Of a DNA stretch of 64,000 nt, positions 45,595 to 64,000 are shown piece by piece. A program made the position numbers and the translations under genes. The stretch covers positions 38,008,001 to 38,072,000 of the forward strand of contig NC_087436.1 of NCBI RefSeq assembly GCF_036321535.1. Reading direction: 5' to 3'. Within the stretch, counting starts at the first letter, position 1. The number at the start of each line of letters is the position of its first letter. The notes beneath the pieces are model-generated. The model had not been told where the DNA came from. It did not search any database and was given only the letters and a program-made list of their open reading frames with translations. Source of the DNA: Camelus dromedarius. Its lineage: Eukaryota.

Positions 45595-47655
45595 ACTCTA
45601 TAGTATCTTTTAAAAAATGAATTAACAATTGATCCTTCCATGACTCCATCTATTTTAATTTACAAACCCAGTATCTAATTTGGGCTAGGCATCAACCCAG
45701 AACTCTAGTGCTTCTGGTACAGAAAATAGAGAATGCAGAGCACTTTTTTCCCCACAGTATTAAAGCCATGATTAGGGATGGAAGGAAGCATGTTATGTCA
45801 TTTTTTGCTGTCTGGTTTTAAGTTATTTCTAAATACCAAAGGTTATGTAACCTTTTCTACAGTGGAGGTTAGCACTGTACTCTTACTGTTTTCAGAGACC
45901 ACAGAGGTGAGCCTAACTACCTAATTATTCACATGCTTTCTGTAGGTAAGACTTGAGCTGGCTGAAGGTAGAAACCTGCCGGCCTGGGACTGGGCTCTCT
46001 GCTGTCTGGCCCTCTATCCAGACCCCCACACACTCACACACAACCTCCATTTGTTCGCTTTGGGTCAGCGTATGACTCACCAGTCTTTACAGTCATGTTG
46101 CTGCTGAAGGAAATGGCAGAGTGGTTAGAAAAATCTATCAGAGTTTCCATGACTTCATTTAAAGGTTTGAGTGAATTTGCTGCCTGAAGGGATGGACCGG
46201 TGACCTGCAGACAGAGTGAGCTAATGGGGGTCTTCAGACACCGGCATTATCCTTCGATCACCTGGCCTTACGTGGTAAAGTTTCCCAAACACTGTCAAAA
46301 TATCACTCTCTTCACCCACTGGTCATTACAAGGGGGCCTCATCTGTGAACTTATTATCAACTGCTAATGAGGACCAGAGCTAAGCTGAAGAGCTGGACTC
46401 ATTTCTCTATGAGAGATGTACAGCTGTGTTGCGGTTGTTCCTTCACAGCCTTCTGTTCCCCAGAACTGACCCCTGGTAAGTTCCTCCAGTCTCATTGTGA
46501 GAGTGATACCCACTCCGACATCACGGCACGTATTTCATTTCACCCTTGTACTGTACACAGCTTATTTTTTAGGATTCTCTGTGTAATGTGGAATGCCCAT
46601 GTGAAGATATCACACAATCAGGGTAGTACTTCTTATATTTTAACGTGCCTACCTGTGACCTGGAGATCTTGGGGGGAAAATGCAGGTTCCAATTGAGTTT
46701 TTCTGGGTTGGGGCTGAAATTCTGCATTTTTAGTGAGTTCCCAGATGATGCTTATCCATGGCCTGCTTTTTAACTAGCATGCTTATATCCAGCATTCTTA
46801 ATTCATGGTGTTTCTAATTAAGTGACATTTACTATTGTCCATAACAGGCAGTAGCCGGCTAACTATGAAACCACATAAATAAAAAGCCCCTTTAAAAACT
46901 CCCATATCTTAATAAGATCCAGGTTATATACATCCCACCATGAGGATGAGCAAGGAAATCAGTCCTCAGCAGTCTTGACCCTTGCTCCCTGTCTAAAAGC
47001 CATAAGTGAAGAACATGAATTCTCCCAGACAGGCCAAGGTGTGTGTGTCCACATGTGTTAGGTGCTTTTGACCCAACAGCTGTCACTAAGCACATCCAGC
47101 GCTCAGGAAACAGAGGGGTAAGTGGTTGAATCGTCAACAAGGCTAAAAGTCAAGAGTAGACACAGAAATTGATGTAGAGTGACTTCTGCCACTGGAGCTT
47201 AGAGCGGCCGTGCAGTCCTCCTCTCTAATCAGAAGCAGCCTCCCTTCCAGCTGTACCGGATATTCTGTTTATTCACCTTGTACTTGAGTAGCAAGTGTCC
47301 TTTAGTGAAAACTTCACTTCCCAGCCTATCTTCAGGGATCTCCATTAGGCTGGTAACAGATTATCACCATCTGTTGGTGATTATTTCCATTACGGAGCTA
47401 CCTGGTCTAAGAGCTGTGTCCTCTCTCACCAGCAGAGCAGCACCTTGAGAGAAATAGGTCAGTCCCACGAGGAGCTGCGAGAAGTGCAGCTGGGTGCAGA
47501 TAATCAATGTGAACACAGCCCAAGGGCTCCCACTTCTATTCTACCTGTGAGTTTTGTTTTGTTTTGTTTTGTTTTACAAGATGGGCACTATAAAATTGTT
47601 TTTTTTTTCACATTTGTATTTTTTAAGAATCTGAAACAGATTCAAGAACAATAAC

Positions 47656-48676
47656 CACCTCTTCTTTTCCAATTTAGATCCCTTTTATTTCACTCTCTTG
47701 CCTGATTGCTGTGGCTAGGACTTCCAAGTCTATGTTGAATAGGAGTGGTGATAGTGGGCAGCCTTGTCTTGTCCCAGATTTTAGTGGGAAGCTTTTGAGT
47801 TTTCCACCGTTGAGTACTATGCTGGCTGTAGGTCTGTCATATATAGCTTTTATGATGTTGAGATATGTTCCCTCTATACCCACTTTGGTGAGAGTTTTTA
47901 TCATAAATGGGTGTTGAATTTTATCAAAAGCTTTTTCTGCATCTATTAAGATGATCATGTGGTTTTTGTCCTTTCTCTTGTTGATGTGATGTATTACATT
48001 GATTGACTTGCATATGTTGAACCACCCTTGCGTCCCTGGGATGAACCCCATTTGGTCATGATGTATAATCTTTTGTATGTGCTGTTGGATTCTATTTGCT
48101 AGTATTTTGGTAAGGATTTTTGCATCTATGTTCATCAGTGATACTGGTCTCTAACTCTCTTTTTTGGTGGTGTCTTTGCCTGGTTTTGGTATTAGGGTGA
48201 TGGTGGCTTCATAGAATGAGTTTGGGAGTATTCCCTCCTTTTCAGTCTTCTGGAAGAGTTGGAGAAGGACTGGAATGAGTTCTTCTTTGTATGTTTGGTA
48301 GAATTCCCTGGTGGAGCCGTCTGGTCCTGGACTTTTATTTGTAGGGAGGTTTTTTATTGCTAATTCAATTCGATTTCTAGTGATCGGTTTGTTCAAGTGG
48401 GCAGACCCATAGACATGGAATACAAACTTGTGGTTGCCAGCAGGATTGGGGGTGGGAAGGGACAGACTGGGATTTCAAAATGTAGAATAGATAGACAAGA
48501 TTGTACTGTATAGCACAGGGAAATATGTGCTGGGTCTTGTGGTGGCTCACAGTGAAGGAGAATGTGACAATGAATGTACGTATGTTCATGTGTGACTGGA
48601 AGATTGTGCTCTACACTGGAATCTGACACAGTATTGTGGAGTGACTATAACTTAATAAAAAAATGTTAAAAAATAA
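47656..48676 (+). mobile_element. 5'-inverted young L1: ORF2 RT segment antisense at 47656-48400, 3'UTR sense at 48401-48676
   Basis: Minus-strand peptides [38 protein letters not shown]; 12-bp TSD aagaacaataac at 47644 and 48677. Confidence 0.93.
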
Positions 48677-49933
48677 AAGAACAATAACAACAAAAAAACC
48701 CAATGCCATTATTTTTTTAAAAAATAACAACCACCTCATTTATTGTGTTTCCACTTTAATCCTATCAGATTTTTAAATGATATATTCATGGCTTCAGTAC
48801 ACTTGTAATTAGTGGAAATCCACAAAACAGAAATATAAACATCTTGTAAATATGAAACATGACTTCGTACACCAGCCAAAGCTGGTAAGGGTAATAACAT
48901 TTGGAAAGTGATTGCAGATTAAATAAGAAATATTCTATATAGCATCTAAAGAACTGCCCTGGAACCACTAAGTCATATTCATTCACCTAAATTCTAGTCA
49001 CTGTGGCCAGTGACATGCCTGTTCTAGGCATAGAAGATATTCTAGGCACGATGAAAAAGGGTGGAAATGTCTACCTTTGTGTAGCTTATGTTCTAATTGT
49101 GGGAGGCAGACAAGCTATCAAGTAAAATACGTACCATGTTGGTGATAAGTGCTGTGGAGAAAAATAAGTGATATGAGTTAAGAAGTGTTGCTGGGAAGGG
49201 AGTGCTGTTTATTTTAAATAAAGCTAATTATATTTCTAGACAGTTACCTGTACTCAAGTTGTATAGTTATTTAAGAAATATTGTCAAATGCCTCCTTTAG
49301 GATATAGAAACGATAATTTCAGATGATAGTGATAATATCCTGCTTTTTGGTTAAAGGATGGAAAGGAATAGAACTACTCATTCCCTAGAACAATGCGAAT
49401 GTGCACCAGCAGCATAAGCTACAGACAACGTGTTGTGGAGATGTCCAAGGTACTGAGCTCATGGTAATTTCCAGAGAAGGCCGCCTCCAGCTGCTCCTTG
49501 TCAGTCAGACAGAGAGACTGCCAAGTCACTGCCAAACTACATCCTCTCTCTAGAAACATGACCAAATTTTTTTTTTACAAACTTTATTTTTTAACTTACA
49601 ATCTTGAACAAAAAACTCTTATTGGGTAATCTTTTTTTCTTTAAACTTTGATCATTGAAAATGTGATAATGTATTATTCTCTAAAAGGTTCTACTTTCTG
49701 AAATTAAGGTTTAACTTAAAGTAGAAGACATTTAGTGTGAGATAAACCTAGGTTCAAATTCTGACTGTATCATTTATACATAGGTGACTTCGGCAGATGA
49801 CTTAATATAGCTGAAATTCTACACACCTCATAGGATGTGAAGATTTAATAAAGTAATATGTGTAAAGTACCTCTTGCTGCACTGGGGCCATAATAGTTGC
49901 TTTGAAATGTGAGATTTTTTTCTTCCTCTCTAC

Positions 49934-60210: not shown

Positions 60211-61598
60211 TTTTTCTTTCTCTTTCTGGCTTACTTCACTTAGAATGACATTCTCCAGGAGCATCCATGTTGCTGCAAATGGCATTATGTTGTCGATTTT
60301 TATGGCTGAGTAGTATTCCATTGTATAAATATACCACCTCTTCTTTATCCAGTCACCTGTTGATGGACATTTAGGCTGTTTCCATGTTTTGGCTATTGTA
60401 AATAGTGCTGCTATGAACATTGGGGTGCAGGTGTCATCCTGAAGTAGATTTCCTTCTGGATACAAGCCCCGGAGTGGGATTCCTGGGTCATATGATAAGT
60501 CTATTCCTAGTCTTTAGAGGAATCTCCACACTGTTTTCCATAGTGGCTGCACCAAACTGCATTCCCACCAGCAGTGTAGGAGGGTTCCCCTTTCTCCACA
60601 GCCTCTCCAGCATTTGTCATTTGTGGATTTTTGAATGACGGCCATTCTGACTGGTGTGAGGTGATACCTCATTGTAGTTTGGATTTGCATTTCTCTGATA
60701 ATTAGTGATATTGAGCATTTTTTCATGTGCTTTTTGATCATTTGTATGTCTTCCTTGGAGAATTGCTTGTTTAGGTCTTCTGCCCATTTTTGGATTGGGT
60801 TGTTTATTTTTTTCTTATTGAGTCATATGAGCTGCTTATATATTCTGGAGATCAAGCCTTTGTCGGTTTCACTTGCAAAAATTTTCTCCCATTCTGTAGG
60901 TTTTCTTCTTGTTTTATTTCTGGTTTCCTTTGCTGTGCAGAAGCTTGTAAGTTTCATTAGGTCCCATTTGTTTATTCTTGCTTTTATTTCTTCTAGGAGA
61001 AAATTTTTTAAATGTATGTCAGATAATGTTTTGCCTATGCTTTCCTCTAGGAGGTTTATTGTATCTTGTCTTATGTTTAAGTCTTTAATCCATTTTGAGT
61101 TGATTTTTGTATATGGTGTAAGGGAGTGTTCTAGCTTCATTGTTTTACATGCTGCTGTCCAGTTTTCCCAACACCATTTGCTGAAGAGACTGTCTTTATT
61201 CCAACGTATATTCTTGCCTCCTTTGTCAAAGATGAGTTGACCAAAAGTTTGTGGGTTATGAGATCGCTCATATGTGGAATCTAAAAAACAAAAACAAAAA
61301 CAAACAAACAAACAAAAACAAAGCATAAATAAAGGACAGAAATAGACTCACAGACAGAGAATACAGACTTGTGGTTACCAGGGGGGTGGAGGGTGGGAAG
61401 GGATAGACTGGGATTTCAAAATTGTAGAATAGACTACACTGTATAGCACAGGGACATATACACAAAATGTTATGATAACTCACAGAGAAAAAAATGTGAC
61501 AATGAGTGTGTATATGTCCATGAATAACTGAAAAATTGTGCTGAACACTGGAATTTGACACAACATTGTAAAATGATTATAAATCAATAAAAAATGTT
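60211..61598 (+). mobile_element. 5'-inverted young L1: ORF2 C-terminal part antisense at 60211-61257, ORF2 end and 3'UTR sense at ~61257-61598
   Basis: Minus-strand peptides [42 protein letters not shown]; perfect repeat ttaaaaataataataata at 60193 and 61597. Confidence 0.95.
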
Positions 61599-64000
61599 AA
61601 AAATAATAATAATAAGCCTTAAAAACTGTATTTAAGTCCAAGGGGAAAATATTTTCAGTGCTAACTCAGGCAGGATTCTTTTTTACTGCACGGTGGAGGA
61701 GAGCTGTGTGACCAGCTCATGTCTACAGGAATCACTGGACGGGTTTTCATCTTATCACTCACGACATGAAGTAGGCAATGTACTCACTTTTCAGGAAAGT
61801 GTTAAGTAACTATGAAAAGGGGGCAAGTCCTTTGACTTTACGGTGAGACAAGACATGCTTTTTTCTCATCCATGGAAAGGCAGGCTAGCTGTCGCACCTC
61901 CCACTCTATCAACAGCCAGCGTTGTGTCTGCAGATTTTTCTACCTAGGTGACTCCAACTCTTTTTACCACCTTATATAGCAAGAGACTGAGAACTTGCCA
62001 TGTAAATCTTACACGTGGAACAGGGTCTGCTTGATTCCTGAAGAGGCGGAGAGTTTATCTGTCCGATCCTTTTGGCCTCCCTCTGTTCTGTTTTGGAAAC
62101 TGATTGCTGCAGAGTGTCTTCCAAACTACACTCACTACCCCCAGACTTCACAAAGACTGATGCGAAGCAACAACACTGCAAATGTCCTCACGTGGTTAGT
62201 GGTTTCAATTTGGAATCTGGTGCTGGTTTCTGGAAGAGATGAGAAGGAAAATTTTCCTGTCCTGGGGATTTTGTATGTTTTTTCTGTCTCTTAGATATTT
62301 TCCCTCTTAAAATGTGGTTGTGAAAAGCAGATGTTCAGGAAAGCTAAAAGTCCTGGAAATATTCATCTGCTTGGTAACTCAATACCTCAGGGTATACATT
62401 GTCCATAGTAGCAAAATAGATTTTTTTTTTCTGCCTCCCATGGAATTGTAGCCATTGAGATAGTGTAAAATATGCCTTCTGAATTTAGCCTGCACTCAAA
62501 TCTGTTTATTGTTCAAAGAAATCATGTAATGCCAATTTAAGGTGTTTTTTTTTGAGTCTTTCATAAATCAACTGCATATTTATTTTGCTGACCAGAGAGA
62601 GTCAGATGAAAACACTCAACATTAAATTTCTACCCTAAATATCACAAAATAAATACCAAGGTCTCCTTAAAAACTTTGAGATCCCAACTTTGCCTCTAAT
62701 AGTAGTCTCCAATGTTCAGCATTTGAAAACATAGAGGAAAGTCATTGTAACTGCTACTTTGGTATAGCGTCCCGGAGCACCAGGACATCAGTTACAGCCC
62801 CCGTTGTTGTAAGGTGACATTGAGCCTCATTTAAAAAGTTACACACAAAGTTTCTCACCTACCAGAAGATTCAAAACTTGGAGTGTTTGTTCAAATGATT
62901 GCTCTAGTAACAATAATGTATTGAAACCACCTTTATTTTCTGACATTTGTCTGTGTAAGGCAAGTGATTCATGACCCTAATTGTATATGGAAGAAATAAA
63001 TTTGAAAGAAACATTTTGTTACAGCAGAGGCTGATATTCATAACTGGTTCCTTGAATATCAGGTAACTAATCAGTCATGGATATATTAACAGGTTATTCA
63101 TGCTTTTCTAGTTTTCACTCTGAAATAAATAAAAAGAGGCCCATTGGCTGGGGTATCATTCGATATTATAATGATACAGTGCTGATAATAATTTCTACTA
63201 GGGAAATACAGTAGCTGTCTTCACATTCACCAAAGTAATAAATAAGCAAACTTCCAGCTTATATACAATCTTTCCTCAGTTTGTTGCTTTCTGAAAATTG
63301 CTTTGAAAGTTAATTAGAACTGCATAAAATATAGCCAGCATACCAGTCCCTAAGAACAGCACACAACAGAAATACTTGATCAGAAAAGCAAAATGTTTAT
63401 TTCACTGGCTAGATTTGGCAATGTACTCCTGTGGCTGCTACTCAGTCTTTTTTGAGTAACCTAGTCTCCTCTCCTCCCTTCTGGCCACTTCCCCGTACTT
63501 AATCTTAAATTTGTGCATTGAGCACTATGGTTGTACTCTGGTGAATGTGTATTTGAGAGCTATTTCTGTTCTCTGATTTTAGCACTATTGTGTTGACTAT
63601 TTACATAATGCATATCAATCAAGATAGTGCCTCCTTTTAGAATGTGTTTAGTCCGTGATCATCACCTGATTTTACTTGACAATCAAAGTTTATTGTCCTG
63701 TCAAGAGTGTCCCTTTTAGTCATAATCATCCTATACTGAATCATCAATACATAGTTTCAGGCTAAACTAGCGAGACTCCTTTCGGATGCTTCACACGCCA
63801 CAGAGAAATGAGGCATGTATTCCATGCTATAGGCTGATTAGTGCTGGAGGTGTGTGGACAGCGGGGCCCAGAAGGGCTGTAACCAACTTTCTGAGGGACA
63901 AAAAGTCACAGAGGCAAAAACTGAGTGCCTTGTTTGGGTCTAATTTCATAGAACAATCAATCTCAATCTTTTTCTACTTGTCAGTCTTTTGAGAGAATAT

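Follow-up and report, generated by a model that had tools for sequence, protein, structure and literature searches.

Clustered A-to-G changes in the 3′ untranslated region of a dromedary L1 insertion: a probable fossil of ADAR-edited L1 RNA

How did an L1 copy in the dromedary genome come to carry G at so many places where its relatives carry A? The copy lies at positions 47656–48676 of a 64,000-nucleotide stretch of Camelus dromedarius contig NC_087436.1. This whole stretch is called the window here, and coordinates given without a contig handle are window positions. Within a genome of 2.3 Gb in 171 contigs, the locus is a single L1 insertion, in which an inverted piece of open reading frame 2 (ORF2) is joined to a sense-oriented piece of the 3′ untranslated region (3′UTR). 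A first-pass annotation took the copy for a possible fossil of an L1 RNA edited by the adenosine deaminase ADAR, because A-to-G (A>G) changes seemed to follow the RNA strand across the inversion. The burst of A>G change in the 3′ block is real and local, and the inversion carries no signal. An ADAR-hyperedited L1 RNA, fixed in DNA by reverse transcription, is probably the best explanation of the 3′ block, judging from sequence comparison. The parts of the insertion, with its target-site duplication (TSD), are as follows.

47644..47655, plus strand: TSD, 5′ copy, AAGAACAATAAC; a 12/12 perfect direct repeat adjoining the insertion end
48677..48688, plus strand: TSD, 3′ copy, AAGAACAATAAC; a 12/12 perfect direct repeat adjoining the insertion end
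47657..48404, minus strand: inverted L1 ORF2 block, reverse-transcriptase domain; its L1-downstream end adjoins the 5′ TSD
48402..48404, no strand: inversion junction, 3 nt (CAG/CTG) common to both blocks, that is, microhomology, as placed by the block boundaries
48402..48676, plus strand: sense L1 3′UTR block, with a short A-rich tail at its end; 88–90% identical to the nearest paralogues
48494..48641, plus strand: A>G hypermutation cluster from the paralogue comparison, with G in place of 13 of its 54 A; a further, 14th site is outside it, at 48417

The 3′ block was compared with its 29 nearest genomic paralogues, which are 88–90% identical to it and were drawn from 40 scored of 4673 candidates. 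A change was called private when it departed from the column majority of the 29. The alignment is gapless, runs from 48402 to 48665 in 260 columns, and uses the bases of the assembly sequence. There are 24 private changes, namely 14 A>G, three T>C, three C>T, two G>A, and two transversions. Expressed per base, A>G has affected 14 of 98 A, T>C 3 of 64 T, and G>A 2 of 64 G. The same tally made on each of the 29 paralogues gives 2–10 changes, with 0–3 A>G per copy. The A>G excess thus stands against the nearest paralogues. An excess of G>A on the sense strand, as left by APOBEC3-type deamination, is absent from both blocks (2/64 in the 3′ block and 4/115 in ORF2).

The A>G sites are 48417, 48494, 48527, 48529, 48534, 48557, 48592, 48594, 48599, 48602, 48631, 48638, 48639, and 48641. 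At these 14 sites, A is present in 27–29 of the 29 near tails and in 17–20 of 20 tails of other subfamilies. Since the sites are A in nearly all of the 49 other tails, the direction of change is A to G, as the first-pass annotation had maintained, and the Gs are private to the window copy. All but one of the sites (13 of 14) fall within 148 bp, at 48494–48641. By zone, 1 of 31 A is changed in 48402–48493, 13 of 54 in 48494–48641, and 0 of 13 in 48642–48665, and a permutation test of clustering along the block gives p = 0.016. The A>G rate of the 3′ block, 14/98, also departs from that of the same copy's ORF2, 7/313 (p = 2e-5). At the ORF2 rate, about two A>G changes would be expected in the 3′ block, and a count of 14 or more has a binomial probability of 4e-8.

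These numbers are smaller than the first estimate, which was of about 20 sites with G here and A in an L1 tail elsewhere in the window. The excess is real, and the count falls to 14. The in-window tail that served as the reference, at 61344–61603, is 76.8% identical and belongs to another subfamily, so it was rejected, and several of the roughly 20 sites are differences between subfamilies. The Gs of one string offered as evidence, gtggtggct, are found in the nearest paralogues as well. The older-subfamily L1 copy to which that tail belongs, at 61000–61603, has an A-rich (AAAC/AAAAAC)n repeat at 61270–61345, just before the tail block. This repeat either interrupts the L1 copy or follows within its 3′UTR. 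A set of 20 elements nearest to the window copy in ORF2 was tried as a subfamily-matched tail reference and likewise rejected, as the tails of these elements are only 75–86% identical. Similarity in ORF2 therefore does not pick the 3′UTR subfamily, and the 20 tails were used only as the far tails mentioned above.

The inverted ORF2 block provides an internal control. Its reference was again a set of 29 nearest paralogues, 94–95% identical, from 40 scored of 6947. Over 731 columns the block has 27 private changes: A>G at 7 of 313 A, T>C at 4 of 137 T, four G>A, three C>T, and nine transversions. There is no A>G excess in these columns, the per-base comparison of A>G with T>C giving p = 0.74. 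The ORF2 paralogues themselves have 0–7 A>G changes, with a mean of 2.4. The bias that had been described in this block is thus not found. Of the six ORF2 sites named in its support, those at 47834, 47804, 48144, and 48155 are indeed private A>G changes, and those at 47817 and 48270 are not private. It follows that the bias cannot be said to flip genomic strand at the inversion, as the inverted part has no bias to flip.

The unbiased ORF2 block is informative in its own right. Lying next to the 3′ block and showing no bias on either strand, it excludes a regional, a transcription-linked, or a GC-biased-conversion effect. GC-biased conversion is further expected to raise A>G and T>C symmetrically, and the two stand at 14/98 and 3/64 in the 3′ block. 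In addition, the ORF2 block was copied from RNA in the same event, and its lack of an excess argues against a reaction that was error-prone throughout. That is, the unedited ORF2 block argues for a local feature of the substrate and against an error of the polymerase or of the nucleotide pool acting over the whole event.

Might the Gs belong to a subfamily of L1? In a search with the hypermutated core (40 scored of 2892), identity to the closest other copy is 89%. Whole-genome pattern counts, which are exhaustive for exact frames, give the same picture. Among 5260 copies matching ATTGT[RRRR]TGACTATAAC, only the window copy has at least three G in the run that is otherwise AAAA. A search for the GGGG motif had one further match (L081), which was set aside as a chance hit outside L1, in line with the control count. 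Only two copies genome-wide, the window copy and a copy designated L083, have G at 48592, 48594, 48599, and 48602 together. No copy and no subfamily carries the window copy's set of Gs, and the search for a multi-copy subfamily with these Gs as its own matched none.

Single positions differ in this respect. The equivalents of 48592 and 48594 are G in 7 and 9, respectively, of the first 100 listed copies of a 30-mer, a frequency far above that at the other sites. This points to mutational hot spots of the ordinary kind or to common variants at the two positions.

L083 is a member of another subfamily and sits on the minus strand of a different contig. Its identity is 81.5% to the window copy and 89–90% to its own nearest relatives. 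Against three of these relatives, at columns where all three agree, the private changes of L083 number 19, made up of 15 A>G (of 105 A), one T>C (of 63 T), two G>T, and one A>C. In one 15-nt stretch, seven of eight A have become G. L083 and the window copy have 6–7 A>G sites in common. A sibling origin of the two was rejected on account of the 81.5% identity and the different subfamilies.

Further L1 tails carry A>G clusters. The 21-mer CTG[AAAAA]TTGTGCTCTACAC, with at least three G required in the bracketed run, has 20 matches genome-wide, and the reversed-pattern control has one. Judged by their matched strings, 12 of the 20 are L1 tails, with six per genomic strand. The genome scan for more such copies thus yielded 12 tails with at least three of five A changed to G, on both strands. 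Eight of the 12 have the identical AGGGA in place of the AAAAA run. Outside the run the AGGGA tails are not alike, and they represent at least two subfamilies. AGGGA could be the hottest-site core of the same process, or it could be a minor inherited variant. Examples of AGGGA tails in the genome (G000) are:

C1:41276560-41276580, minus strand
C6:34188697
C13:45543606
C14:14613455
C15:38001171
C29:17776378
C37:52376005
C37:63874926

A 50-nt search, made with the unchanged stretch of one of the cluster tails (L082) and with mismatches allowed, gave nine copies with two to five A>G changes in varied combinations. Eight of the 12 cluster tails were then compared at columns invariant between the two subfamilies:

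L092, C29:17776184-17776458, plus strand: A>G 15/92, T>C 2/59; 15 of 18 changes are A>G
L083, C37:92603045-92603319, minus strand: A>G 13/93, T>C 2/59 (invariant columns)
L089, C37:27741348-27741622, plus strand: A>G 10/80, T>C 4/49
L087, C37:52375945-52376219, minus strand: A>G 6/47, T>C 0/30; about 125 nt
L082: A>G 5/36, T>C 0/26
L088: A>G 7/92, T>C 2/57; little beyond the triple G
L090: A>G 7/92, T>C 3/59; little beyond the triple G
L091: A>G 4/54, T>C 2/36; little beyond the triple G

Because these copies were found by asking for Gs, the search run was left out of the pooled test. Outside the run, the eight tails together have A>G at 42 of 546 A versus T>C at 15 of 375 T (p = 0.025). For comparison, the 29 paralogues have a background of 26/2697 for A>G and 22/1710 for T>C. 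The same sites recur from copy to copy: over nine copies, 48602 is changed in nine, 48600 and 48601 in seven each, 48639 in six, and 48574 in four.

A mirror search asked for at least three of five T>C. In a neighbouring 21-mer it gave one match (reversed control, eight), and in the same 21-mer it gave one match that looks non-L1 (control, one). With 12 tails on one side and zero or one on the other, clusters on the L1 sense strand are clearly skewed towards A>G, whatever the orientation of the copy in the genome. As the asymmetry holds on both genomic strands, the strand evidence that was sought in the inversion comes instead from other copies.

The ORF2 block is 94–95% identical to thousands of L1 copies in a whole-genome search, matches Pfam RVT_1 at 47773-48150 on the minus strand (E = 2.7e-21), and has two in-frame stops. 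When a 121-nt query across the inversion junction was run on the genome, only the window's own locus, one of 40 scored matches, spanned the junction. The other 39 are one-sided, ending at query positions 56–60 or beginning at 58. A composite source locus was rejected because the junction is unique among the scored matches, which means that the composite was formed at integration and was not copied from a source that was already composite. In 19 of 19 longer paralogues holding both parts, about 1.76 kb separate the end of the ORF2 block from the start of the 3′ block further downstream. Thus about 1.76 kb of L1 is missing here, and the inversion is combined with a large internal deletion. Passage through an RNA intermediate is marked by the 12-bp TSD, the A-rich tail, the 5′ inversion, and the unique junction.

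Inversion of the 5′ part of L1 by twin priming is said to have been set out by Ostertag and Kazazian in 2001. The present insertion is like a product of twin priming in that one TSD surrounds the composite, the downstream end of the inverted block lies at the 5′ TSD, and the junction has 3 nt of microhomology. Small deletions or duplications between the segments are typical of twin priming, and in this the locus differs, since the 1.76 kb missing between its segments is larger than typical.

The left end of the insertion has a further repeat. CACCTC (47656–47661), next to the 5′ TSD copy, is found again at 48732–48737. That is, the 18 nt at the left end, AAGAACAATAACCACCTC (47644–47661), are split on the right into AAGAACAATAAC, 40 nt, and then AACCACCTC (48677–48737). 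The TSD may be longer than 12 bp, with an indel. Alternatively, CACCTC, whose span includes the first 5 nt of the inverted L1 block, may reflect microhomology used in priming, or its recurrence may be fortuitous. A (GTTTT)n microsatellite lies at 47551–47577, about 70 bp upstream of the insertion.

We propose the following account of the locus. One L1 retrotransposition by target-primed reverse transcription, with a 5′ inversion of the twin-priming type and an internal deletion of about 1.76 kb, would have produced the insertion. Its template L1 RNA would have been hyperedited, adenosine to inosine, by an ADAR enzyme over the last 150 nt or so of the 3′UTR. Inosine would be copied as G, which would turn about a quarter of the A in the stretch into G on the L1 sense strand of the DNA. 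Over ORF2 this RNA would not have been double-stranded and would have stayed unedited. For the 3′UTR, we infer that an antisense L1-tail RNA paired with it, as a separate molecule (in trans) or as part of a longer transcript.

Several observations favour this proposal. A one-type, sense-strand, locally saturating A>G change in RNA-derived DNA is what is expected of ADAR hyperediting followed by reverse transcription, and the locus has a one-strand A>G cluster with the other substitution types at background. The densities of 13/54 A here and 7/8 A in L083 are within the known range of ADAR hyperediting and are high for any polymerase. The inversion argument with which the first-pass annotation supported an edited-RNA fossil fails; its conclusion is nevertheless the best explanation of the 3′ block, on other grounds. 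These are that the Gs are unshared, that other tails are clustered on both strands at partly the same sites, that mirror T>C clusters are nearly absent, and that the ORF2 block is unedited. ADAR1 and ADAR2 are described as binding the L1 ribonucleoprotein in the relevant portions of two reports (PMC5224506, PMC8677026).

Other observations weigh against ADAR as the agent. Within this locus alone, A>G at 14/98 versus T>C at 3/64 gives only p = 0.066. The additional copies are an ascertained sample, found via their Gs, and 8 of the 12 have the same AGGGA variant. The layout of the mirror motif is unlike that of the A-run, its T being dispersed, and CpGs, which decay fast, would result from two of its five T>C changes. 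ADAR disfavours a 5′ G, favours a 5′ U or A, and favours a 3′ G. The neighbours had been noted as mostly T or A on the 5′ side, and this is borne out at 12 of the 14 sites in the window copy. Pooled over four copies (31 events), a 5′ A/T precedes 27/31 edited A versus 129/226 unedited A (p = 0.0014). In the same four copies, however, a 5′ G is not significantly depleted (3/31 edited versus 46/226 unedited), the rarest neighbour is a 5′ C (1/31, p = 0.008), and a 3′ G is not enriched (3/31 edited versus 25/226 unedited). Moreover, the ordinary A>G changes of the paralogues likewise follow A/T, in 22 of 32 cases. The ADAR neighbour motif is thus matched only weakly, and the 5′ A/T preference equally fits WA>WG error of the polymerase-eta type.

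The double-stranded partner is a further difficulty. No long complement to the tail was found in about 5.8 kb of sense L1, searched from about 1.5 kb upstream of the ORF2 block to the L1 3′ end, a range that leaves the 5′UTR and ORF1 outside it. The tail folds no better than shuffled sequence (z = 0.07). An intramolecular partner within those 5.8 kb of L1 was therefore set aside, and the proposal has to assume pairing in trans or within a longer transcript. In cell culture, moreover, the pertinent sections of the two reports on the L1 ribonucleoprotein give no editing in the approximately 50% of L1 RNA that was Sanger-sequenced (PMC5224506, PMC8677026).

The main competitor of ADAR editing is error-prone DNA synthesis, either during integration or in a patch repaired afterwards. 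In making the sense strand, a low-fidelity polymerase could put G opposite T, in the WA>WG manner of polymerase eta, or the L1 reverse transcriptase could put C opposite rA near its start site. The neighbours suit such errors: a 5′ A/T, as in the WA motif, stands at 12/14 sites here and 27/31 in the pool, C and G are both rare on the 5′ side, and G is not enriched on the 3′ side. All the clusters, moreover, are close to the 3′ end, the starting point of reverse transcription and the finishing point of second-strand synthesis, and error-prone synthesis needs no double-stranded RNA partner, of which none was found. It leaves unexplained, however, why the ORF2 block, a product of the same event and the same two reactions, shows no excess (7/313). 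A repair patch laid down after integration should affect either strand, yet T>C clusters are nearly absent. Nor does error-prone synthesis account for the local density of 13/54 A here and 7/8 A in L083, which lies above any published misinsertion rate of a polymerase that we know of. We know of no role of polymerase eta in L1 integration. On balance, we consider error-prone synthesis unlikely, although it deserves to be taken seriously.

An artefact of assembly or base calling at the locus is much less probable still. The reads give it some room: 20 of 23 listed runs, from nine studies, hold 0.58–0.65 of the words sampled over 47400–48950, a measure without resolution by position. Like clusters nevertheless occur at several other loci and on both strands, the alignment is gapless with other substitution types at normal levels, and mis-polishing had no other copy from which to bring in these Gs. 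The least probable explanation combines inherited subfamily variants, neutral decay, GC-biased gene conversion, and regional or transcription-linked bias. In its favour, 48592 and 48594 are G in several percent of copies (the 7 and 9 of the first 100 listed), and the original reference tail was of the wrong subfamily. It is largely refuted by the finding of A at the 14 sites in 27–29/29 near and 17–20/20 far tails with the full set shared by no copy, by the 4e-8 chance of 14 or more A>G where about two are expected, and by the asymmetry of the weak-to-strong changes (14 A>G, 3 T>C). The regional and transcription-coupled variants are put out by the ORF2 block, which is unbiased on either strand.

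Editing by ADAR has precedents among retroviruses. ADAR-type A>G hyperediting fixed in retroviral DNA is cited, in the pertinent part of PMC8586724, for RAV-1 (Felder 1994) and for avian leukosis virus (Hajjar & Linial 1995). The present locus is like those described there in having RNA-strand-specific A>G clusters, in reverse-transcribed sequence, with part of the genome affected. It is unlike them in concerning a non-LTR L1, target-primed reverse transcription, and the germline. It further differs in having no visible inverted repeat or double-stranded RNA partner, and ADAR dependence is here inferred.

Scars of host deaminases in integrated retroelements are well documented for APOBEC3, which leaves G>A changes. 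Retroelement copies hypermutated in this way and fixed in mammalian genomes figure in the pertinent sections of PMC4866542 (Knisbacher & Levanon 2016) and PMC2873906 (Zaranek et al. 2010). The likeness is that a host deaminase leaves a cluster of one type on one strand, found by comparison with paralogues or a consensus. The differences are that the change here is A>G rather than G>A and that it would arise on RNA before reverse transcription rather than on the minus-strand cDNA. For ADAR and L1, the likeness to restriction studies (Orecchini et al., PMC5224506, PMC8677026) is that ADARs are physically associated with the L1 ribonucleoprotein. The restriction described in those studies is independent of editing; the fossils proposed here would be evidence that edited L1 RNA at times completes integration in vivo. 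A 2016 review, in the passage concerned, calls the mutational role of ADAR on retroelements "not yet determined" (PMC4982230). No report of ADAR-type A>G scars in integrated L1 was found in the literature searched; Knisbacher & Levanon 2015 (PMID 25722083), which lies outside it, may bear on novelty.

In this genome, the edited-RNA explanation appears to hold for a small group of L1 tails. Whether a small germline class of L1, about one or two per thousand 3′ tails, derives from ADAR-hyperedited RNA, its hot sites pointing to a recurring double-stranded RNA partner of the 3′UTR, is to us an evenly balanced proposition. If it is true, L1 RNA that is able to retrotranspose is edited by ADAR in vivo, which departs from the cell-culture view, in which editing plays no part, and fossils in the genome could be used to measure ADAR editing of L1 RNA. 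Were the clusters ADAR footprints, it would also follow that edited L1 RNA sometimes completes integration in the germline. The footprints would then offer a means, from sequence alone, to locate editing along the L1 RNA, and editing would be an added source of abrupt sequence change in new L1 copies.

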